The notes under the pieces: model-generated
Databases searched by the model: none
What the model saw: only the letters and a program-made list of their open reading frames with translations
Told to the model about the DNA's origin: nothing
Position numbers and translations under genes: made by a program
Assembly: GCF_011045215.1 (NCBI RefSeq)
Contig: NZ_CP049201.1
Strand: one strand, 5' to 3'
Length of the DNA: 64,000 nt
DNA from: Escherichia coli
Lineage (GTDB): Bacteria; Pseudomonadota; Gammaproteobacteria; Enterobacterales; Enterobacteriaceae
Shown here: one piece after another, positions 6,907-28,135 of the stretch
How the letters are laid out: each line of letters opens with the position of its first letter
How positions within the stretch are numbered: position 1 is the first letter of the stretch

Positions 6907-6954
6907 GGTATTGTCGGATGCGTCGCGTGGCGCATCCGACAGTTGTGCGCAGAT

Positions 6955-7840
6955 GCCTGATGCGACGCTGGCGCGTCTTATCATGCCTACAGGCCTGAAC
7001 CGTAGGTCGGATAAGGCGCTCGCACCGCATCCGACACCGTGCTCAGTGCCTGATGCGACGCAGGCGCGTCTTATCATACCTACAGGCCTGAACCGTAGGT
7101 CGGATAAGGCGCTCGCGGCGCATCCGACACCATGCGCAGATGCCTGATGCGACGCTGATGCGTCTTATCATGCCTACAGGCCTGAACCGTAGGTCGGATA
7201 AGGCGCTCGCGCCGCATCCGACACCATGCGCAGATGCCTGATGCGACGCTGATGCGTCTTATCATGCCTACAGGCCTGAACCGTAGGTCGGATAAGGCGC
7301 TCGCGCCGCATCCGACACCATGCGCCGATGCCTGATGCGACGCAGGCGCGTCTTATCATGCCTACAGGCCTGAACCGTAGGTCGGATAAGGCGCTCGCAC
7401 CGCATCCGACACCGTGCTCAGTGCCTGATGCGACGCTGATGCGTCTTATCATGCCTACAGGCCTGAACCGTAGGTCGGATAAGGCGCTCGCGCCGCATCC
7501 GACACCATGCGCAGATGCCTGATGCGACGCTGATGCGTCTTATCATGCCTACAGGCCTGAACCGTAGGTCGGATAAGGCGCTCGCGCCGCATCCGACACC
7601 ATGCGCCGATGCCTGATGCGACGCTGGCGCGTCTTATCATGCCTACAGGCCTGAACCGTAGGTCGGATAAGGCGCTCGCGCCGCATCCGACACCGTGCGC
7701 AGATGCCTGATACGACGCAGGCGCGTCTTATCATGCCTACAGGCCTGAACCGTAGGTCGGATAAGGCGCTCGCGCCGCATCCGACACCATGCGCCGATGC
7801 CTGATGCGACGCTTACCGCGTCTTATCATGCCTACCCACT
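6955..7840. repeat. Tandem array of REP/BIME units, about 9.5 copies of a ~94-bp unit
   Basis: Unit gcctgatgcgacgc...gtcttatcatgcctacaggcctgaaccgtaggtcggataaggcgctcgcgccgcatccgacacc... recurs with starts near 6955, 7049, 7143, 7237, 7331, 7425, 7519, 7613, 7707 and 7800, with a few point differences between copies. Confidence 0.9.
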
Positions 7841-7905
7841 GTTTTTACACCGATAATTTTCCCCCCACCTTTTTGCACTCATTCATATAAAAAATATATT
7901 TCCCC

Positions 7906-7921
7906 ACGAAAACGATTGCTT
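7906..7921 (+). promoter_or_regulatory. Candidate PurR operator (PUR box) upstream of codBA
   Basis: ACGAAAACGATTGCTT resembles the PUR-box consensus ANGCAAACGTTTNCNT and sits about 70 bp upstream of the codB start. Confidence 0.35.
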
Positions 7922-7987
7922 TTTATCTTCAGATGAATAGAATGCGGCGGATTTTTTGGGTTTCAAACAGCAAAAAGGGGGAATTTC

Positions 7988-9247
7988 GTGTCGCAAGATA
8001 ACAACTTTAGCCAGGGGCCAGTCCCGCAGTCGGCGCGGAAAGGGGTATTGGCATTGACGTTCGTCATGCTGGGATTAACCTTCTTTTCCGCCAGTATGTG
8101 GACCGGCGGCACTCTCGGAACCGGTCTTAGCTATCATGATTTCTTCCTCGCAGTTCTCATCGGCAACCTTCTCCTCGGTATTTACACTTCATTTCTCGGT
8201 TACATTGGCGCAAAAACCGGCCTGACCACTCATCTTCTTGCTCGCTTCTCGTTTGGTGTTAAAGGCTCATGGCTGCCTTCACTGCTGCTGGGCGGCACCC
8301 AGGTTGGCTGGTTTGGCGTCGGTGTGGCGATGTTTGCTATTCCGGTGGGCAAGGCAACCGGGCTGGATATTAATTTGCTGATTGCCGTTTCCGGTTTACT
8401 GATGACCGTCACCGTCTTCTTTGGCATTTCGGCGCTGACAGTTCTTTCGGTGATTGCGGTTCCGGCGATCGCCTGTCTTGGCGGTTATTCCGTGTGGCTG
8501 GCCGTTAACGGCATGGGCGGCCTGGACGCCTTAAAAGCGGTCGTTCCCGCACAACCATTAGATTTCAATGTCGCGCTGGCGCTGGTTGTGGGGTCATTTA
8601 TCAGTGCGGGTACGCTCACCGCCGACTTTGTCCGGTTTGGTCGCAATGCCAAACTGGCGGTGCTGGTGGCGATGGTGGCCTTTTTCCTCGGCAACTCGTT
8701 GATGTTTATTTTCGGTGCAGCGGGCGCTGCGGCACTGGGGATGGCGGATATCTCTGATGTGATGATTGCTCAGGGCCTGCTGTTGCCTGCGATTGTGGTG
8801 CTGGGGCTAAATATCTGGACCACCAACGATAACGCGCTCTATGCGTCGGGTTTAGGTTTCGCCAACATTACCGGGATGTCGAGCAAAACCCTTTCGGTAA
8901 TCAACGGTATTATCGGTACGGTCTGCGCATTATGGCTGTATAACAATTTTGTCGGCTGGTTGACCTTCCTTTCGGCAGCTATTCCTCCGGTGGGTGGCGT
9001 GATCATTGCCGACTATCTGATGAACCGTCGCCGCTATGAGCACTTTGCGACCACGCGTATGATGAGTATCAATTGGGTGGCGATTCTGGCGGTCGCCTTG
9101 GGGATTGCTGCAGGCCACTGGTTACCGGGAATTGTTCCGGTCAACGCGGTATTAGGTGGCGCGCTGAGCTATCTGATCCTTAACCCGATTTTGAATCGTA
9201 AAACGACAGCAGCAATGACGCATGTGGAGGCTAACAGTGTCGAATAA
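7988..9247 (+). CDS. codB: Cytosine permease (NCS1 family)
   Basis: 419-aa ORF starting at a [22 protein letters not shown]..., multi-pass membrane protein. Confidence 0.93.
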
Positions 9248-10520
9248 CGCTTTACAAACAATTATTAACGCCCGGTTACCAGGCGAAGAGGGGCTGTGGC
9301 AGATTCATCTGCAGGACGGAAAAATCAGCGCCATTGATGCGCAATCCGGCGTGATGCCCATAACTGAAAACAGCCTGGATGCCGAACAAGGTTTAGTTAT
9401 ACCGCCGTTTGTGGAGCCACATATTCACCTGGACACCACGCAAACCGCCGGACAACCGAACTGGAATCAGTCCGGCACGCTGTTTGAAGGCATTGAACGC
9501 TGGGCCGAGCGCAAAGCGTTATTAACCCATGACGATGTGAAACAACGCGCATGGCAAACGCTGAAATGGCAGATTGCCAACGGCATTCAGCATGTGCGTA
9601 CCCATGTCGATGTTTCGGATGCAACGCTAACTGCGCTGAAAGCAATGCTGGAAGTGAAGCAGGAAGTCGCGCCGTGGATTGATCTGCAAATCGTCGCCTT
9701 CCCTCAGGAAGGGATTTTGTCGTATCCCAACGGTGAAGCGTTGCTGGAAGAGGCGTTACGCTTAGGGGCAGATGTAGTGGGGGCGATTCCGCATTTTGAA
9801 TTTACCCGTGAATACGGCGTGGAGTCGCTGCATAAAACCTTCGCCCTGGCGCAAAAATACGACCGTCTCATCGACGTTCACTGTGATGAGATCGATGACG
9901 AGCAGTCGCGCTTTGTCGAAACCGTTGCTGCCCTGGCGCACCATGAAGGCATGGGCGCGCGAGTCACCGCCAGCCACACCACGGCAATGCACTCCTATAA
10001 CGGGGCGTATACCTCACGCCTGTTCCGCTTGCTGAAAATGTCCGGTATTAACTTTGTCGCCAATCCGCTGGTCAATATTCATCTGCAAGGACGTTTCGAT
10101 ACGTATCCAAAACGTCGCGGCATCACGCGCGTTAAAGAGATGCTGGAGTCCGGCATTAACGTCTGCTTTGGTCACGATGATGTCTTCGATCCGTGGTATC
10201 CGCTGGGAACGGCGAATATGCTGCAAGTGCTGCATATGGGGCTGCATGTGTGTCAGTTGATGGGTTACGGGCAGATTAACGATGGTCTGAATTTGATCAC
10301 CTACCACAGCGCCAGAACGTTGAATTTGCAGGATTACGGCATTGCCACCGGAAACAGCGCCAACCTGATTATCCTGCCGGCTGAAAATGGATTTGATGCG
10401 CTGCGCCGTCAGGTTCCGGTACGTTATTCGGTACGTGGCGGCAAGGTGATTGCCAGCACACAACCGGCACAAACCACCGTATATCTGGAGCAGCCGGAAG
10501 CCATCGATTACAAACGGTGA
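9237..10520 (+). CDS. codA: Cytosine deaminase
   Basis: Start placed at the GTG at 9237 ([19 protein letters not shown]...), overlapping the codB 3' end; 427 aa. The ORF track starts 15 nt upstream. Confidence 0.9.
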
Positions 10521-10557
10521 TCGGCTGGGCTGTGTGTTGACAAAGCGAGCGTAGTTT

Positions 10558-10640
10558 ATGCCGGATGCGGCGTGAACGCCTTATCCGGCCTACGTAGAGC
10601 ACCGAACTCGTAGGCCTGATAAGCGTAGCGCATCAGGCAA
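10558..10640. repeat. REP element downstream of codA
   Basis: gccggatgcggcgtgaacgccttatccggcctac ... gtaggcctgataagcgtagcgcatcaggc. Confidence 0.8.
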
Positions 10641-10652
10641 TTGTGTCAGTGG

Positions 10653-11552
10653 CTACCGTGATTCATTCCCGCCAACATCCGCGCATTCCTCCAACGCCAT
10701 GTGCAAAAATGCCTTCGCAGCGGCAGTCTGCCAGCTATTTTTCCGCCGCAACAAAACCGCCGTTCTCTCCAGTAGTGGCGGGGCAAGAGAAATAGCTTTA
10801 AGCCCGTCATGTTGTGTGGCAATCGCTGCTGGTAACAATGTGGAAAGGGAAGTGCGGCGAATCAGCTCCAGAACCGCGCTAATTGAGTTCGCCTCAATTA
10901 CCACCTGTGGATGCAGCCCCGCTTTCTCGCAGTAGTGGTCAATTTGCTCTCTGGTGGCAAATTCCGCGCTGAGCAGTACCAGTTTTTCATCATGCAAGCG
11001 ACTCAACGCCACCTGTTCATGGACTGCCAGCGGATGATGTTGCGCCACGACTAACGCTAAACTTTCTGTCAGTAAAGGAATTGCCTCCAGCTCCGGCGAA
11101 TGCACAGGCGCGAAGGCAATCCCAACGTCCAACTCGTCGCGGCAAAGCATATCCTCGATTTTCTCCTGCGACATTTCCTGTAGCTGGAGCGTGATGCCGG
11201 GATAGCGCGCATAGAAATCCGCCATTAAGGGGCCGATAAAGTAGCTCGTAAAGGTGGGGGTGACGGCGATACGCAGCGATCCTCGCGTCAGATCGGCAAC
11301 ATCATGAATCGCCCGTTTACCCGCCCCCAGTTCCTGTAACGCCCGGCTGGCGTACTGTCGCCAGACTTCTCCTGCATCAGTGAGACGAATCGTTCGCCCG
11401 CTACGGTCAAACAGCGGCACGCCTAAACTCTCCTCTAACTGGCGGATCTGCTGGGAAAGCGCAGGCTGGGAGACGTGCAACGCACTGGCGGCACGGGTGA
11501 AGCTGCCATGTTCAGCCACGGCAAGAAAATAATTGATATGTCGAGAGAGCAT
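10653..11552 (-). CDS. cynR: LysR-family transcriptional activator of the cyn operon
   Basis: Protein [40 protein letters not shown]... with an N-terminal LysR HTH; 299 aa. The start is trimmed 8 codons from the ORF-track start. Divergent from cynT. Confidence 0.9.
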
Positions 11553-11661
11553 TCGCCAACCTATAAGTAAATCCAATAGAACTCATCATAAATGAGACTT
11601 TTACCTTATGACAATCGGCGAGTAGTCTGCCTCTCATTCCAGAGACAGACAGAGGTTAACG

Positions 11662-12321
11662 GTGAAAGAGATTATTGATGGATTCCTTAAATTCCAGCGC
11701 GAGGCATTTCCGAAGCGGGAAGCCTTGTTTAAACAGCTGGCGACACAGCAAAGCCCGCGCACACTTTTTATCTCCTGCTCCGACAGCCGTCTGGTCCCTG
11801 AGCTGGTGACGCAACGTGAGCCTGGCGATCTGTTCGTTATTCGCAATGCGGGCAATATCGTCCCTTCCTACGGGCCGGAACCCGGTGGCGTTTCTGCTTC
11901 GGTGGAGTATGCCGTCGCCGCGCTTCGGGTATCTGACATTGTGATTTGCGGTCATTCCAACTGTGGCGCGATGACCGCCATTGCCAGCTGTCAGTGCATG
12001 GACCATATGCCTGCCGTCTCCCACTGGCTGCGTTATGCCGATTCAGCCCGCGTCGTTAATGAGGCGCGCCCGCATTCCGATTTACCGTCAAAAGCTGCGG
12101 CGATGGTACGTGAAAACGTCATTGCTCAGTTGGCTAATTTGCAAACTCATCCATCGGTGCGCCTGGCGCTCGAAGAGGGGCGGATCGCCCTGCACGGCTG
12201 GGTCTACGACATTGAAAGCGGCAGCATCGCAGCGTTTGACGGCGCAACCCGCCAGTTTGTGCCACTGGCCGCTAATCCTCGCGTTTGTGCCATACCGCTA
12301 CGCCAACCGACCGCAGCGTAA
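11662..12321 (+). CDS. cynT: Carbonic anhydrase (beta class)
   Basis: 219-aa [23 protein letters not shown]... Confidence 0.93.
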
Positions 12322-12333
12322 CCTTATTTTTAA

Positions 12334-12822
<489 letters not shown>

Positions 12823-12827
12823 CAGCC

Positions 12828-14009
12828 ATGCGCAACCATCAAAAGACGTTCACGATACTGCTGGTTCTGGTGCTGATTGGTCTTAATATGCGACCTCTGC
12901 TCACCTCCGTCGGGCCACTGCTACCGCAATTGCGCCAGGCAAGCGGAATGAGCTTTAGCGTGGCTGCCCGGTTGACCGCTCTGCCGGTGGTTACCATGGG
13001 CGGGCTGGCGCTGGCCGGAAGCTGGCTTCATCAGCATGTCAGCGAACGTCGCAGCGTCGCCATCAGTTTGTTACTGATTGCCGTCGGTGCATTGATGCGT
13101 GAGCTTTACCCCCAAAGTGCGCTGCTGCTTAGCAGCGCACTGCTCGGTGGGGTGGGGATCGGCATCATTCAGGCGGTGATGCCTTCGGTGATTAAACGGC
13201 GGTTTCAGCAGCGCACGCCACTGGTGATGGGGCTGTGGTCCGCGGCTCTGATGGGCGGCGGTGGGCTTGGTGCCGCCCTGACACCCTGGTTAGTTCAACA
13301 TAGCGAAACCTGGTATCAAACACTCGCCTGGTGGGCGCTGCCTGCCGTTGTTGCGCTCTTTGCCTGGTGGTGGTGAAGCGCCCGCGAGGTCGCCTCTTCC
13401 CACAAGACAACAACCACTCCGGTTCGCGTGGTTTTCACTCCTCGCGCGTGGACGCTGGGTGTTTACTTCGGTCTGATTAACGGTGGTTACGCCAGCCTGA
13501 TTGCCTGGTTACCCGCCTTCTATATTGAGATTGGTGCCAGCGCGCAGTACAGCGGTTCCTTGCTGGCATTGATGACGCTTGGGCAAGCCGCAGGAGCTTT
13601 GCTGATGCCTGCTATGGCTCGCCATCAGGATCGGCGCAAACTTTTGCTGTTGGCACTGGCGTTACAACTGGTGGGTTTCTGCGGCTTTATCTGGCTGCCG
13701 CTGCAATTGCCGGTATTGTGGGCGATGGTGTGTGGTTTAGGTCTGGGCGGCGCATTTCCGCTCTGTTTGCTGCTGGCTCTCGATCACTCTGTGCAACCGG
13801 CTATTGCTGGCAAGCTGGTGGCGTTTATGCAGGGGATCGGTTTTATCATCGCCGGGCTTGCCCCGTGGTTTTCTGGCGTGCTGCGTAGTATCAGCGGCAA
13901 TTACCTGATGGACTGGGCGTTTCATGCGCTGTGCGTCGTTGGGCTGATGATTATAACCCTGCGTTTTGCACCAGCACGTTTTCCGCAGCTGTGGGTCAAA
14001 GAGGCATAA
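12828..14009 (+). pseudogene. cynX: Cyanate transporter CynX (MFS), interrupted by an in-frame TGA at 13374-13376
   Basis: ORFs 12828-13376 and 13428-14009 are in the same frame and together reconstitute a CynX-like protein (...ALFAWWW*SAREVASSHKTTTTPVRVVFTPRAW...). Only the single stop codon breaks the reading frame. Confidence 0.6.
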
Positions 14010-14039
14010 TGCGACGCTTGTTTCTGCGCTTTGTTCACG

Positions 14040-14100
14040 CCGGATGCGGCCTACGTAGATCACTGAATTTGTAGGCCTGATAAGCGAAGCGTATCAGGCA
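14040..14100. repeat. REP element between cynX and lacA
   Basis: cggatgcggcctacgtagatcactgaatttgtaggcctgataagcgaagcgtatcaggc. Confidence 0.8.
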
Positions 14101-14111
14101 ATTTTTATAAT

Positions 14112-14723
14112 TTAAACTGACGATTCAACTTTGTAATCTCTGAAATAATATTGCTTATCCCGGTCGTTTATTTCGCGAATAACCCGACAAGGAACGCCAG
14201 CCGCCACGACGTTTGGTGGAATGTCTTTTGTGACGATACTACCCGCGCCAATAACAGAATTATCCCCGATGGTGACGCCTGGATTAATAACCACATGACT
14301 TCCGATCCAGACGTTATTGCCAATCGTTATCGGAAAAGAGTACATCTCACCGTTTTTTCTCAATTCATGGTGTACAGGGTGTCCCGTAACGGAAAGAGTA
14401 ACGTTGGGTGCAATCAGTACGTTATCACCGATTGTTACCGTGTAGTCATCGACAATGGTTAAATTGAAATTTGCATAAAAATTGCGGCCTATATGGATGT
14501 TGGAACCGTAAGAGAAATAGACGGGGGGTTCTACCCAGGCGTTTTCCCCTACCGTGGCAAACATTTCTTTAATCAGGCTTTCTCTTTTTTCAACTTCTGA
14601 TGGATGCGAGTGATTAAACTCATACATTAACGTTTTCCCACGAAGTCTTTTTTCCGGTAAGCCTTCGCACATATCGGTAAATAGCTTGCCTGCTTTTATT
14701 CTTTCTGTCATCGACATGTTCAT
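14112..14723 (-). CDS. lacA: Galactoside O-acetyltransferase
   Basis: Protein MNMSMTERIKAGKLFTDMCEGLPEKRLRG..., hexapeptide-repeat acetyltransferase, 203 aa. The start is trimmed from the ORF-track start, which runs into a REP element. Confidence 0.92.
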   Translation of the reverse strand: MNMSMTERIKAGKLFTDMCEGLPEKRLRGKTLMYEFNHSHPSEVEKRESLIKEMFATVGENAWVEPPVYFSYGSNIHIGRNFYANFNLTIVDDYTVTIGDNVLIAPNVTLSVTGHPVHHELRKNGEMYSFPITIGNNVWIGSHVVINPGVTIGDNSVIGAGSIVTKDIPPNVVAAGVPCRVIREINDRDKQYYFRDYKVESSV

Positions 14724-14737
14724 TGCGATCATTCCGT

Positions 14738-14775
14738 TATGATATGTTGGTCGGATAAGGCGCTCGCGCCGCATC
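14738..14775. repeat. REP element in the lacY-lacA intergenic region
   Basis: ggtcggataaggcgctcgcgccgcatccgaca. Confidence 0.7.
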
Positions 14776-14788
14776 CGACATTGATTGC

Positions 14789-16087
<1,299 letters not shown>

Positions 16088-16093
16088 TTATTA

Positions 16094-19206
<3,113 letters not shown>

Positions 19207-19212
19207 TCACAC

Positions 19213-19242
19213 AACATACGAGTCGGACGCATAAAGTGTAAA
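19213..19242 (-). promoter_or_regulatory. lac promoter P1 (-10 TATGTT and -35 TTTACA, 18-bp spacer)
   Basis: Plus-strand aacata at 19213-19218 is the -10 and tgtaaa at 19237-19242 is the -35. The spacer has two substitutions relative to the familiar K-12 sequence. Confidence 0.85.
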
Positions 19243-19244
19243 GC

Positions 19245-19268
19245 CTGGGGTGCCTAATGAGTGAGCTG
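19245..19268 (-). promoter_or_regulatory. CRP (CAP) binding site of the lac promoter
   Basis: taatgagtgagctgactcacatta retains the TGTGA...TCACA half-sites, with one central change from the K-12 site. Confidence 0.85.
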
Positions 19269-19290
19269 ACTCACATTAATTGCGTTGCGC

Positions 19291-20373
19291 TCACTGCCCG
19301 CTTTCCAGTCGGGAAACTTGTCGTGCCAGCTGCATTAATGAATCGGCCAACGCGCGGGGAGAGGCGGTTTGCGTCTTGGGCGCCAGGGTGGTTTTTCTTT
19401 TCACCAGAGAGACGGGCAAAAGCTGATTGCCCTTCACCGCCAGGCCCTGAGAGAGTTGCAGCAAGCGGTCCACGCTGGTTTGCCCCAGCAGGCGAAAATC
19501 CTGTTTGATGGTGGTTAACGGCGGGATATAACACGAGCTGTCTTCGGTATCGTCGTATCCCACTACCGAGATATCCGCACCAACGCGCAACCCGGACTCG
19601 GTAATGGCGCGCATTGCGCCCAGCGCCATCTGATCGTTGGCAACCAGCATCGCAGTGGGAACGATGCCCTCATTTAGCATTTGCATGGTTTGTTGAAAAC
19701 CGGACATGGCACTCCAGTCGCCCTCCCGTTCCGCTATCGGCTGAATTTGATTGCGAGTGAGATATTTATGCCAGCCCGCCAGACGCAGACGCGCCGAGAC
19801 AGAACTTAATGGGCCCGCTAACAGCGCGATTTGCTGGTGACCCAATGCGACCAGATGCTCCACGCCCAGTCGCGTACCGTCTTCATGGGAGAAAATAATA
19901 CTGTTGATGGGAGTCTGGTCAGAGACATCAAGAAATAACGCCGGAACATTAGCGCAGGCAGCTTCCACAGCAATGGCATCCTGGTCATCCAGCGGATAGT
20001 TAATGATCAGCCCACTGACGCGTTGCGCGAGAAGATTGTGCACCGCCGCTTTACAGGCTTCGACGCCGCTTCGTTCTACCATCGACACCACCACGCTGGC
20101 ACCCAGTTGATCGGCGCGAGATTTAATCGCCGCGACAATTTGCGACGGCGCGTGCAGGGCCAGACTGGAGGTGGCAACGCCAATCAGCAACGACTGTTTC
20201 CCCGCCAGTTGTTGTGCCACGCGGTTGGGAATGTAATTCAGCTCCGCCATCGCCGCTTCCACTTTTTCCCGCGTTTTCGCAGAAACGTGGCTGGCCTGAT
20301 TCACCACGCGGGAAACGGTCTGATAAGAGACACCGGCATACTCTGCGACATCGTATAGCGTTACTGGTTTCAC
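19291..20373 (-). CDS. lacI: Lactose operon repressor
   Basis: GTG start giving VKPVTLYDVAEYAGVSYQTVSRVVNQASHVSAKTREKVEAAMAELNYIPNR..., 360 aa. The ORF track begins 3 codons upstream. Confidence 0.95.
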   Translation of the reverse strand: MKPVTLYDVAEYAGVSYQTVSRVVNQASHVSAKTREKVEAAMAELNYIPNRVAQQLAGKQSLLIGVATSSLALHAPSQIVAAIKSRADQLGASVVVSMVERSGVEACKAAVHNLLAQRVSGLIINYPLDDQDAIAVEAACANVPALFLDVSDQTPINSIIFSHEDGTRLGVEHLVALGHQQIALLAGPLSSVSARLRLAGWHKYLTRNQIQPIAEREGDWSAMSGFQQTMQMLNEGIVPTAMLVANDQMALGAMRAITESGLRVGADISVVGYDDTEDSSCYIPPLTTIKQDFRLLGQTSVDRLLQLSQGLAVKGNQLLPVSLVKRKTTLAPKTQTASPRALADSLMQLARQVSRLESGQ

Positions 20374-20449
20374 ATTCACCACCCTGAATTGACTCTCTTC
20401 CGGGCGCTATCATGCCATACCGCGAAAGGTTTTGCGCCATTCGATGGTG

Positions 20450-21283
20450 TCAACGTAAATGCACGCCGCTTCGCCGTCCGGCTACCAGAATAGCCTGCGA
20501 TTCAACCCCTTCTTCGATCTGTTTTGCTACCCGTTGTAGCGCCGGAAGATGCTTTTCCGCTGCCTGTTCGATGGTCATTGCGCTCGCCATATACACCAGA
20601 TTCAGACAGCCAATCACCCGTTGTTCACTGCGCAGCGGTACGGCGATAGAGGCGATCTTCTCCTCCTGATCCCAGCCGCGGTAGTTCTGTCCGTAACCCT
20701 CTTTGCGCGCGCGCGCCAGAATGGCTTCCAGCTTTAACGGTTCTCGTGCCAGTTGATAGTCATCACCGGGGCGGGAGGCTAACATCTCGATTAATTCCTT
20801 GCGTTCTTGTTCCGGGCAAAAGGCCAGCCAGGTCAGGCCCGAGGCGGTTTTCAGAAGCGGCAAACGTCGCCCGACCATTGCCCGGTGAAAGGATAAGCGG
20901 CTGAAACGGTGGGTGGTTTCGCGTACCACCATTGCATCAACATCCAGCGTAGACACATCTGTCGGCCATACCACTTCGCGCAACAGATCGCCCAGCAGTG
21001 GGGCCGCCAGTGCAGAAATCCACTGTTCGTCACGAAATCCTTCGCTTAATTGCCGCACTTTGATGGTCAGACGAAAACTATCATCGGAGGGACTACGCCG
21101 GACATATCCCTCTTCCTGCAGCGTCTCCAGCAGTCGCCGCACAGTGGTGCGATGCAGGCCGCTGAGTTCCGCCAGCAGCCCGACGCTGGCACCGCCGTCA
21201 AGTTTATTTAACATATTTAATAACATTAGACCGCGGGTTAAGCCGCGCACGGTTTTGTATTCCGTCTGCTCATTGTTCTGCAT
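20450..21283 (-). CDS. mhpR: IclR-family activator of the mhp operon
   Basis: Protein MQNNEQTEYKTVRGLTRGLMLLNMLNKLDGG..., 277 aa. The ORF-track start is 38 codons further upstream, but that extension lacks supporting context. Confidence 0.88.
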   Translation of the reverse strand: MQNNEQTEYKTVRGLTRGLMLLNMLNKLDGGASVGLLAELSGLHRTTVRRLLETLQEEGYVRRSPSDDSFRLTIKVRQLSEGFRDEQWISALAAPLLGDLLREVVWPTDVSTLDVDAMVVRETTHRFSRLSFHRAMVGRRLPLLKTASGLTWLAFCPEQERKELIEMLASRPGDDYQLAREPLKLEAILARARKEGYGQNYRGWDQEEKIASIAVPLRSEQRVIGCLNLVYMASAMTIEQAAEKHLPALQRVAKQIEEGVESQAILVAGRRSGVHLR

Positions 21284-21316
21284 ATTAATTGACATTTCTA
21301 TAGTTAAAACAACGTT

Positions 21317-21331
21317 GTGCACCTGGTGCAC
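21317..21331 (+). promoter_or_regulatory. Candidate MhpR operator in the mhpR-mhpA divergent region
   Basis: Inverted repeat GTGCACCTGGTGCAC between the divergent mhpR and mhpA starts. Confidence 0.5.
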
Positions 21332-21473
21332 ATTCGGGCATGTTTTGATTGTAGCCGAAAACACCCTTCCTATACTGAGCGCACAATAAAAAATCATTTA
21401 CATGTTTTTAACAAAATAAGTTGCGCTGAACTGTGCGCGCAACGGCATTTTGTCCGAGTCGTGAGGTACTGAA

Positions 21474-23138
21474 ATGGCAATACAACACCCTGACATCCAG
21501 CCTGCTGTTAACCATAGCGTTCAGGTGGCGATCGCTGGTGCCGGTCCGGTCGGGCTGATGATGGCGAACTATCTCGGCCAGATGGGCATTGACGTGCTGG
21601 TGGTGGAGAAACTCGATAAGTTGATCGACTACCCGCGTGCGATTGGTATTGATGACGAGGCGCTGCGCACCATGCAGTCGGTCGGCCTGGTCGATAATGT
21701 TCTGCCGCATACAACGCCGTGGCACGCGATGCGTTTTCTCACCCCGAAGGGCCGCTGTTTTGCTGATATTCAGCCAATGACCGATGAATTTGGCTGGCCG
21801 CGCCGTAACGCCTTTATTCAGCCGCAGGTCGATGCGGTGATGCTGGAAGGGGTGTCGCGTTTTCCGAATGTGCGCTGCTTGTTTTCCCGCGAGCTGGAGG
21901 CCTTCAGTCAGCAAGATGACGAAGTGACCTTGCACCTGAAAACGGCAGAAGGGCAGCGGGAAATAGTCAAATCCCAGTGGCTGGTGGCCTGTGATGGTGG
22001 GGCAAGTTTTGTCCGTCGCACCCTGAATGTGCCGTTTGAAGGTAAAACTGCGCCAAATCAGTGGATTGTGGTAGATATCGCCAACGATCCGTTAAGTACG
22101 CCGCATATCTATTTGTGTTGCGATCCGGTGCGCCCGTATGTTTCTGCCGCGCTACCTCATGCGGTACGTCGCTTTGAATTTATGGTGATGCCAGGAGAAA
22201 CCGAAGAACAGCTGCGTGAGCCGCAAAATATGCGCAAGCTGTTAAGCAAAGTGCTGCCTAATCCGGACAATGTTGAATTGATTCGCCAGCGTGTCTACAC
22301 CCACAACGCGCGACTGGCGCAACGTTTCCGTATTGATCGCGTACTGCTGGCGGGCGATGCCGCGCACATCATGCCGGTATGGCAGGGGCAGGGCTATAAC
22401 AGTGGCATGCGCGACGCCTTTAACCTCGCATGGAAACTGGCGTTGGTTATCCAGGGGAAAGCCCGCGATGCGCTGCTCGATACCTATCAACAAGAACGTC
22501 GCGATCACGCCAAAGCGATGATTGACCTGTCCGTGACGGCGGGCAACGTGCTGGCTCCGCCGAAACGCTGGCAGGGTACGTTACGTGACGGCATTTCCTG
22601 GCTGCTGAATTATCTGCCGCCAGTAAAACGCTACTTCCTCGAAATGCGCTTCAAGCCGATGCCGCAATATTACGGCGGTGCGCTGGTACGTGAGGGCGAA
22701 GCGAAGCACTCTCCGGTCGGCAAGATGTTTATTCAGCCGAAAGTCACGCTGGAAAACGGCGACGTGACGCTACTCGATAACGCGATCGGCGCGAACTTCG
22801 CGGTAATTGGCTGGGGATGCAATCCACTGTGGGGGATGAGCGACGAGCAAATCCAGCAGTGGCGCGCGTTGGGCACACGCTTCATTCAGGTGGTGCCGGA
22901 AGTGCAAATTCATACCGCACAGGATAACCACGACGGCGTACTACGCGTGGGGGATACGCAATGTCGTCTGCGTAGCTGGTTCGCGCAACACAATGCTTCG
23001 CTGGTGGTGATGCGCCCGGATCGCTTTGTTGCCGCCACCGCCATTCCGCAAACCCTGGGCAAGACCCTGAATAAACTGGCGTCGGTGATGACGCTGACCC
23101 GCCCTGATGCCGACGTTTCTGTCGAAAAGGTAGCCTGA
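21474..23138 (+). CDS. mhpA: 3-(3-hydroxyphenyl)propionate hydroxylase (FAD monooxygenase)
   Basis: 554-aa ORF with an N-terminal FAD-binding motif ([17 protein letters not shown]). Confidence 0.93.
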
Positions 23139-23139
23139 T

Positions 23140-24084
23140 ATGCACGCTTATCTTCATTGTCTTTCCCACTCGCCGCTGGTGGGGTATGTCGACCCAGCAC
23201 AAGAGGTACTCGATGAGGTCAATGGCGTGATTGCCAGCGCCCGCGAGCGTATTGCGGCTTTCTCCCCTGAACTGGTGGTGCTGTTTGCGCCAGATCACTA
23301 CAACGGCTTTTTCTATGACGTGATGCCACCGTTCTGTTTAGGCGTTGGAGCGACGGCAATTGGTGATTTCGGCAGTGCGGCAGGAGAGCTGCCCGTGCCT
23401 GTGGAGCTGGCGGAGGCCTGTGCGCATGCCGTCATGAAGAGCGGGATCGATCTTGCCGTTTCTTATTGTATGCAGGTGGACCACGGGTTCGCCCAGCCGC
23501 TGGAGTTCCTGCTCGGTGGGCTGGATAAGGTGCCAGTTCTGCCTGTGTTCATCAACGGTGTCGCCACGCCGCTGCCCGGTTTCCAGCGTACCCGCATGTT
23601 GGGTGAAGCCATTGGACGTTTCACCAGCACTCTCAATAAACGCGTGCTGTTCCTGGGTTCCGGTGGGCTTTCCCATCAGCCGCCGGTGCCCGAACTGGCG
23701 AAAGCCGATGCCCATATGCGCGACCGCCTGTTGGGGAGCGGGAAAGATTTACCCGCCAGTGAGCGCGAATTGCGTCAGCAACGGGTGATTAGCGCCGCTG
23801 AGAAGTTTGTTGAGGATCAGAGAACTCTGCATCCGCTCAACCCGATTTGGGATAACCAGTTCATGACTTTGCTGGAGCAGGGACGCATACAGGAACTGGA
23901 TGCCGTCAGTAACGAAGAGCTTTCCGCCATTGCCGGAAAGTCGACACATGAAATCAAAACCTGGGTCGCCGCTTTTGCCGCTATTTCTGCATTTGGCAAC
24001 TGGCGTAGCGAAGGGCGTTATTACCGCCCAATCCCGGAGTGGATTGCCGGATTTGGCTCGTTAAGCGCCAGAACAGAGAACTGA
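23140..24084 (+). CDS. mhpB: 2,3-dihydroxyphenylpropionate 1,2-dioxygenase (extradiol)
   Basis: 314-aa [25 protein letters not shown]... Confidence 0.93.
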
Positions 24085-24086
24085 AT

Positions 24087-24968
24087 ATGCAGGAGAAGAT
24101 GATGAGTTATCAGCCACAAACCGAAGCCGCCACCAGCCGTTTTCTGAATGTAGAAGAAGCGGGTAAAACGCTGCGCATCCATTTTAATGACTGCGGACAA
24201 GGCGACGAAACCGTTGTCCTGCTGCATGGTTCCGGCCCGGGTGCTACTGGCTGGGCGAACTTCAGCCGCAATATCGATCCGCTGGTAGAGGCGGGCTATC
24301 GGGTGATCCTGCTGGATTGTCCGGGTTGGGGCAAGAGCGATTCGATCGTTAATAGTGGTTCGCGATCGGATCTTAATGCACGAATCCTGAAAAGCGTGGT
24401 GGATCAACTGGAAATCGCCAAAATCCACCTGCTGGGCAACTCGATGGGTGGTCATAGTTCTGTGGCGTTCACCCTTAACTGGCCGGAGCGCGTCGGCAAA
24501 CTGGTGCTGATGGGCGGCGGTACGGGCGGCATGAGTTTGTTTACGCCGATGCCAACCGAAGGTATTAAGCGACTGAATCAGCTTTATCGTCAGCCGACTA
24601 TCGAAAACCTGAAGCTGATGATGGATATCTTCGTTTTTGATACCAGCGATTTGACCGACGCCCTGTTTGAAGCGCGCCTGAATAATATGCTGTCGCGCCG
24701 CGATCACCTGGAAAATTTCGTTAAGAGCCTGGAAACTAATCCGAAACAGTTCCCGGATTTTGGCCCACGTCTGGCGGAAATCAAAGCGCAAACCCTGATT
24801 GTCTGGGGGCGCAACGACCGCTTTGTGCCGATGGATGCGGGTCTGCGTCTGCTGTCCGGCATTGCCGGTTCTGAACTGCATATCTTCCGCGACTGTGGTC
24901 ACTGGGCGCAGTGGGAACATGCCGACGCTTTCAATCAACTGGTGCTGAATTTCCTCGCACGTGCTTAA
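24087..24968 (+). CDS. mhpC: 2-hydroxy-6-ketonona-2,4-dienedioate hydrolase (alpha/beta hydrolase)
   Basis: [29 protein letters not shown]... with a GNSMGG nucleophile elbow. The start is uncertain: the ORF track begins at 24039, and alternative ATGs follow. Confidence 0.88.
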
Positions 24969-26730
<1,762 letters not shown>

Positions 26731-26734
<4 letters not shown>

Positions 26735-27744
26735 ACGGTAAAAAACTTTATATCTCGGACGTCACGTTGCGTGACGGTATGCACGCCATTCGTCATCAGT
26801 ATTCGCTGGAAAACGTTCGCCAGATTGCCAAAGCACTGGACGATGCCCGCGTGGATTCGATTGAAGTGGCCCACGGCGACGGTTTGCAGGGTTCCAGCTT
26901 TAACTATGGTTTCGGCGCACATAGCGACCTTGAATGGATTGAAGCAGCGGCGGATGTGGTGAAGCACGCCAAAATCGCGACGTTGTTGCTGCCAGGAATC
27001 GGCACTATTCACGATCTGAAAAATGCCTGGCAGGCTGGCGCGCGGGTGGTTCGTGTGGCAACGCACTGTACCGAAGCTGATGTTTCCGCCCAGCATATTC
27101 AGTATGCCCGCGAGCTCGGAATGGACACCGTTGGTTTTCTGATGATGAGCCATATGACCACGCCGGAGAATCTCGCCAAGCAGGCAAAGCTGATGGAAGG
27201 CTACGGTGCGACCTGCATTTATGTGGTGGATTCTGGCGGTGCGATGAACATGAGCGATATCCGTGACCGTTTCCGCGCCCTGAAAGCAGTGCTGAAACCA
27301 GAAACGCAAACCGGCATGCACGCTCACCATAACCTGAGTCTTGGCGTGGCGAACTCTATCGCGGCGGTGGAAGAGGGCTGCGACCGAATCGACGCCAGCC
27401 TCGCGGGAATGGGAGCGGGCGCAGGTAACGCGCCGCTGGAAGTATTTATTGCCGCCGCGGATAAACTGGGTTGGCAGCATGGGGCCGATCTCTATGCGTT
27501 AATGGATGCCGCTGACGACCTGGTGCGTCCGTTGCAGGATCGACCGGTACGAGTCGATCGCGAAACGCTGGCGCTGGGATACGCTGGTGTTTACTCCAGC
27601 TTCCTGCGTCACTGTGAAACGGCGGCGGCGCGTTATGGCTTAAGCGCGGTGGATATTCTCGTTGAGCTGGGCAAACGCCGGATGGTTGGCGGCCAGGAGG
27701 ATATGATCGTCGACGTGGCGCTGGATCTGCGCAACAACAAATAA
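26731..27744 (+). CDS. mhpE: 4-hydroxy-2-oxovalerate aldolase
   Basis: 337-aa [28 protein letters not shown]...; overlaps the mhpF stop. Confidence 0.93.
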
Positions 27745-27789
27745 TATTGACTGCCGAGAACGTGCATTTTGTATGCCCATCCCAGCACG

Positions 27790-28135
<346 letters not shown>

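Follow-up and report, generated by a model that had tools for sequence, protein, structure and literature searches.

Organization of the cyn locus

The window analysed here is a stretch of 64,000 nucleotides of Escherichia coli contig NZ_CP049201.1, in which the genes follow the order prpR-prpBCDE-codBA-cynR-cynTSX-lacAYZI-mhp...-aroM. Its cyn segment (cynR, cynT, cynS, cynX, then lacA) is arranged as in annotated genomes: cynX is the third gene of cynTSX, placed downstream of cynS and convergent with lacA. The three other cyn genes are intact. The exact CynT protein is very common in public assemblies, and the exact CynR protein is on record in many. Features discussed below are collected in Table 1.

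Table 1. Features of the cyn locus, in window coordinates
Feature	Coordinates	Strand	Basis
cynR (LysR-type regulator), intact, 299 aa	10653..11552	-	full length
cynT (carbonic anhydrase), intact, 219 aa	11662..12321	+	99.1% identity to the reference strain, full length
cynS (cyanase), intact, 156 aa	12352..12822	+	100% protein identity to PapM-32-1, full length
cynX pseudogene, last gene of cynTSX	12828..14009	+	translation, NF007256, RefSeq colinearity
N-terminal remnant, 182 aa, roughly TM1-TM6 (N-domain of the MFS fold)	12828..13373	+	ORF list, profile positions 4-182
Private change L48R, codon 48 CTG>CGG, hydrophobic segment	12969..12971	+	allele comparison
Premature TGA, codon 183	13374..13376	+	CGA (Arg) in sister genome, CAA (Gln) in 42 other E. 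coli alleles
C-terminal remnant, roughly TM7-TM12	13377..14009	+	ORF 13428-14009, profile positions 202-393

The start of cynX deserves a comment. At 12855-12857, where the common RefSeq annotation places an ATG (384-aa form), the window has ATA, as do two unrelated contigs (L009 and L010); for this reason the ATG at 12828 is more likely to be the true start, and the resulting 393-aa form fits the 393-position NCBIfam profile. This ATG has no Shine-Dalgarno sequence and lies 5 nt past the stop codon of cynS, which suggests that cynX may be translationally coupled to cynS.

In other strains among the loci collected, the locus has decayed in different ways. In L041 (GCA_011884625.2) cynX lies directly next to cynR, with neither cynS nor cynT called and an interval about 455 bp shorter. 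Two others, L028 and L032, have no lacA between cynX and lacY.

A single in-frame TGA interrupts cynX

Translated in a single frame, the 394 codons of cynX contain one internal stop only, at codon 183. The surrounding sequence (13365-13385) reads TGG TGG TGG TGA AGC GCC CGC, and its translation ...ALFAWWW*SAREVASSHKTTTTPVRVVFTPRAW... The ORF list accordingly holds two entries of the same frame, 12828-13376 (182 aa) and 13428-14009 (193 aa, GTG start). The initial annotation had read this as a TGA splitting one CynX-like MFS protein, and both halves of that statement are borne out: the fragments match positions 4-182 and 202-393, respectively, of the 393-position NCBIfam profile NF007256 'cyanate transporter'. 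Once the stop is repaired, the protein scores 765.7 bits against NF007256 over positions 4-393 (cut-off 312 bits) and 470.4 bits against TIGR00896, again above the cut-off (406 bits). The gene is also colinear with RefSeq cynX of three complete genomes, at 98.8-99.3% identity. Judged by these matches, the two ORFs are a genuine interrupted cynX orthologue and not a chance juxtaposition. No uninterrupted ORF covers both six-helix domains, the TGA standing at the end of TM6; with codon 183 so occupied, the locus is filed as a pseudogene of the CynX/NimT family and not as one of its functional members.

The stop codon is reproduced in a second assembly

From the reads of run SRR11014969, Logan provides three contigs that match the window at 100% identity along 20,074 nt, the TGA and the G at 12970 included. 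They correspond to window positions 7806-10583 (contig _434, 2,778 nt), 10613-14778 (contig _483, 4,166 nt) and 14751-27880 (contig _67, 13,130 nt). The window itself may have been built from the very same reads, so that the agreement of the contigs excludes an artefact of the assembler and not a systematic read error. Elsewhere in the 64-kb window, the other genes annotated in PapM-32-1 all align over their full length with neither stop nor frameshift. The stop is thus reproducible and the assembly of the window is not error-ridden; the identity of the Logan contigs together with the clean neighbouring reference genes makes an assembly artefact unlikely. Of the two explanations offered by the initial annotation, these observations favour a real nonsense mutation leaving cynTS intact, to which the single-base step described below and the integrity of cynT, cynS and cynR add their weight; a sequencing or assembly error is correspondingly disfavoured. 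As one specific source of error we considered a Nanopore miscall at a Dcm site: the last base of the motif CCTGG (13362-13366) precedes the changed one by 8 nt, and the identical Logan contigs would argue against a platform-specific artefact.

Codon 183 in other E. coli and the origin of the stop

The cynX gene is present in 4,259 of the 5,426 complete RefSeq E. coli genomes, with a best identity to the window of 99.3%; over window positions 1-25000 the best match in the same collection reaches 98.7%. The comparison with other E. coli cynX proposed in the initial annotation gives a clear answer as to the sense codon. Three RefSeq genomes and seven public contigs carry CAA (Gln) at codon 183, and across all loci collected we count 42 CAA, 2 CGA and 1 TGA, the two CGA loci being one contig fetched twice. 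A sense codon therefore occupies the site in close and distant orthologues alike. When a 61-nt query centred on the stop was used, it found matches in 4,220 of the 5,426 complete genomes; the TGA allele was in none of these 4,220, and the best match still had two mismatches. Neither a TGA nor a TAA allele at codon 183 was matched in JGI metagenome contigs or GTDB species representatives. In the collections searched, the exact 182-aa CynX fragment is on record from SRR11014969 alone.

The nearest relative found, hereafter the sister genome, was retrieved by searching for exact matches to the CodA allele private to the window: GCA_910665095.1, contig CAJVFD010000008.1. Across window positions 7213-24009 the two sequences disagree at 6 of 16,797 nt, and cynX of the sister genome is intact (393 aa), with CGA (Arg) at codon 183. 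Because of this intact CGA allele, the stop is accounted for by a single C>T transition, at the end of the path CAA>CGA>TGA. The ancestral Gln183 codon CAA became CGA earlier in the lineage, and one further transition changed CGA to the stop in the window's strain.

Polarised against the panel, three of the six differences are derived on the window branch: cynX L48R (12970 T>G), cynX R183* (13374 C>T) and lacZ P452S (17815). Two others arose on the branch of the sister genome (cynS A123T and mhpB G206A), and the sixth falls in a repeat array with ambiguous polarity. All five coding differences are nonsynonymous. At position 12970 the window and the Logan contig alone have G; the 43 other alleles, that of the sister genome included, have T. 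The lacZ change at codon 452 is likewise private, seen only in the window and a Logan contig of SRR11014969. The window's LacZ allele is recorded for that run alone; its LacY allele is too common to single out the sister genome.

Several more complex origins were considered. Set against CAA alleles alone, the change could plausibly have been a tandem double substitution, an inversion of 2 bp (CA>TG) or slippage within the TGG repeat; these were rejected in view of the CGA of the sister genome. A templated mutation from an ectopic or quasi-palindromic donor was rejected as well: the window holds no donor, and the change breaks a local 7-bp inverted repeat instead of perfecting it. This repeat, perfect in wild-type cynX, spans 13357-13377 around the WWW codons (CTTTGCC-TGGTGGT-GGCAAAG); one of its pairs is broken by the CGA of the lineage and two by the TGA of the window.

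Predicted consequences for the transporter

The hydropathy minimum of the whole CynX lies at residues 186-192, just past the stop. The stop therefore sits where TM6 gives way to the central loop and the N-domain meets the C-domain, which is removed as a whole. Translation would stop after TM6, where the central cytoplasmic loop begins, and would release a 182-aa half-transporter that would be unable to form the 12-helix MFS fold. The remaining N half bears a further private change, L48R, which adds a charge to a hydrophobic segment.

The C-terminal remnant is probably untranslated, since no Shine-Dalgarno sequence precedes GTG 13428, the first codon at which translation could restart in frame. 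The anti-SD duplex energy at this codon is -2.4 kcal/mol, compared with -6.5 to -10.7 kcal/mol at real starts in the window. The sole in-frame ATG backed by a Shine-Dalgarno sequence is at 13605, and its product would be without TM7-8. A conserved independent start with a ribosome-binding site is thus missing for the C half, and the split itself is private to one strain. With no ribosome-binding site of its own, the C-terminal half would most likely not be made, and expression of cynX as a split gene was rejected for this lack of a Shine-Dalgarno sequence. Since cynX is the last gene of cynTSX, its interruption would leave cynS, cynT and cynR unaffected.

Recoding of the stop was examined next to this. 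The RNA of 13365-13450, immediately 3' of the stop, folds no better than its shuffles (z = 0.27), giving no SECIS-like structure, and Rfam returns no match downstream of the stop at E <= 1. Homologues among the loci collected have Gln or Arg at codon 183, and none has Cys or Sec. Selenocysteine insertion or another structured recoding was rejected for the absent fold and the absent Rfam match. UGA is nonetheless the leakiest stop codon in E. coli, and three UGG codons stand directly before it here; small amounts of full-length CynX may be produced by read-through with Trp.

From the truncation after TM6 we infer that the transport function of CynX is lost. Even the wild-type CynX of E. coli is described as no more than a putative cyanate transporter (PMC6627978).

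Inactivation of cynX in other strains

Contigs on which this C-terminal ORF is a gene of its own show other, independent disruptions of cynX. The allele W162* (TGG>TAG, codon 162) occurs in three complete genomes, ETEC1732, ETEC1734 and MB53, which come from pigs in Belgium and poultry in Cuba; in the records of ETEC1732 and MB53, PGAP annotates cynX as a pseudogene with an 'internal stop'. Another allele, W168* (TGG>TAG, codon 168), is present on three contigs and was not found among the 5,426 complete E. coli genomes, and an indel allele is present on a further contig. In the sequences searched, loss of cynX is therefore recurrent but rare. Such repeated independent inactivation is the reason to consider cynX dispensable: its loss would be tolerated in most niches, and we infer that it is selectively neutral. 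The cynX-lacA intergenic region has served as a neutral integration site in EHEC (PMC6705877).

Other features of the window

The prpE-codB intergenic region (6946-7808) contains an array of about 9-10 tandem units with a period of ~94 bp and REP/BIME-like palindromic sequence. It occupies a 1.08-kb gap, gives many short spurious ORFs, and the length of this gap varies widely from strain to strain among the fetched loci. Further REP-type palindromic elements are found in the cynX-lacA (14035-14100) and lacA-lacY (14745-14790) intergenic regions; these elements explain why the 25-kb BLAST search gives numerous additional short matches in each genome.

In the 3' part of codA, seven substitutions are gathered in 284 bp (10064-10347; five synonymous, plus H356Y and A371T). 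Apart from the window, only the sister genome has them, and 23-24 other haplotypes lack them; the segment looks like a short recombination tract from a divergent donor. On a larger scale, most proteins encoded from mhpR onward (20453-64000) are 100% identical to those of the baboon isolate PapM-32-1, whereas the prp-cod-cyn-lac genes of 1-20400 are only 97.7-99.8% identical to it; this contrast suggests that a mosaic or recombination boundary lies close to lacI/mhpR. The window lacks a gene pair, encoding an MBL-fold hydrolase and a GlxA regulator, that separates mhpR from lacI in PapM-32-1 as well as in many further strains.

Discussion

We propose that cynX of the window is very probably a recent, lineage-private nonsense pseudogene, created in one step from CGA to TGA, whose C half is not made and whose loss is tolerated.

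The most immediate objection is that an error in sequencing or in the consensus produced the TGA, in which case codon 183 would really be CGA, as in the sister genome, and cynX would be intact. At codon 183 the two genomes are indeed a single base apart, the TGA allele comes from only one sequencing run across all collections searched, and the Logan contigs possibly share the reads of the window. However, two different assemblies have the same base and agree completely over 20 kb, the remaining reference genes of the window are free of stops and frameshifts, and cynX carries another damaging private change, L48R, which is likewise present in the Logan contig; we thus regard an error as highly unlikely. 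That a functional transporter is still made, be it by read-through of UGA (Trp after WWW), by selenocysteine recoding or by co-expressed N and C halves acting as a split permease, appears extremely unlikely. Split MFS permeases can function if both halves are expressed, as known for LacY, and the stop falls exactly between the six-helix domains, where such splits are tolerated; the leakiness of UGA and a C-terminal ORF devoid of further damage also speak for this possibility. Against it stand the lack of a SECIS-like structure and of an Rfam match, the homologues with Gln or Arg and never Cys or Sec, the restart at GTG 13428 with its weak duplex and an alternative at ATG 13605 that would lose TM7-8, the charge brought by L48R into the N half, and the stop itself, which a single private mutation separates from an intact allele and which is no conserved arrangement.

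A different question is whether the loss was positively selected in this lineage, adaptive rather than a matter of neutral decay. The gene makes up 7% of the compared length, yet of the three substitutions that arose on the window branch within the 16.8 kb, two lie in it, and both are damaging; the naive probability of this is ~0.014, and cynX was knocked out independently in several other lineages. The two hits are suggestive of relaxed or positive selection. But it was the stop that drew attention to cynX, and given this, the probability that one or both of the other two changes fall there is ~0.13, which is not significant. Moreover, about 4,200 of the 5,426 complete genomes keep the cynX stretch, mostly annotated as intact, and the knock-out alleles found are rare (3, 0 and 0 genomes). 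We consider adaptive loss unlikely. The odds are similarly small for a further proposal, in which cynX inactivation would be recurrently selected in some niches, this strain then showing two successive hits (L48R and R183*), or a low amount of transporter would persist via Trp read-through behind the WWW motif.

The preferred reading, a nonsense pseudogene, can be set beside known systems. Annotated E. coli CynX (NF007256 / TIGR00896, CynX/NimT family MFS) and the gene of the window share the locus codA-cynR-cynTSX-lacAYZI, the length and the frame; they are 97.7-99.3% identical, and the repaired protein is a full-length match to the profile. What sets the window apart is the TGA at codon 183, the private L48R and the ATA at 12855. 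The closest parallel is found in the W162* pseudogenes of ETEC1732, ETEC1734 and MB53: there too, a single-base nonsense mutation hits the second half of the N-domain and leaves cynT, cynS and lacA intact. The mutations themselves differ (TGG>TAG at codon 162 as opposed to CGA>TGA at codon 183), and the W162* haplotype has a background unrelated to that of the window (97.7% identity), which makes them independent events. With bacterial selenoprotein genes such as fdhF, the window cynX shares an in-frame UGA inside a continuous coding frame; unlike them, it has no SECIS hairpin, its orthologues carry Gln or Arg in place of Cys or Sec, and its UGA is private to one strain.

We regard the interrupted cynX as an ordinary pseudogene of an evidently dispensable gene, neither novel in kind nor surprising. 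For annotation, the locus should be described as one cynX pseudogene with an internal stop and not as two MFS genes. The path CAA>CGA>TGA, its intermediate kept in the sister genome, resolves an apparent tandem double substitution into two ordinary transitions. The strain is predicted to retain cyanase and carbonic anhydrase while being deprived of the putative cyanate permease. Altogether, with the W162*, W168* and indel alleles, this interrupted gene provides further evidence for the dispensability of cynX in E. coli.
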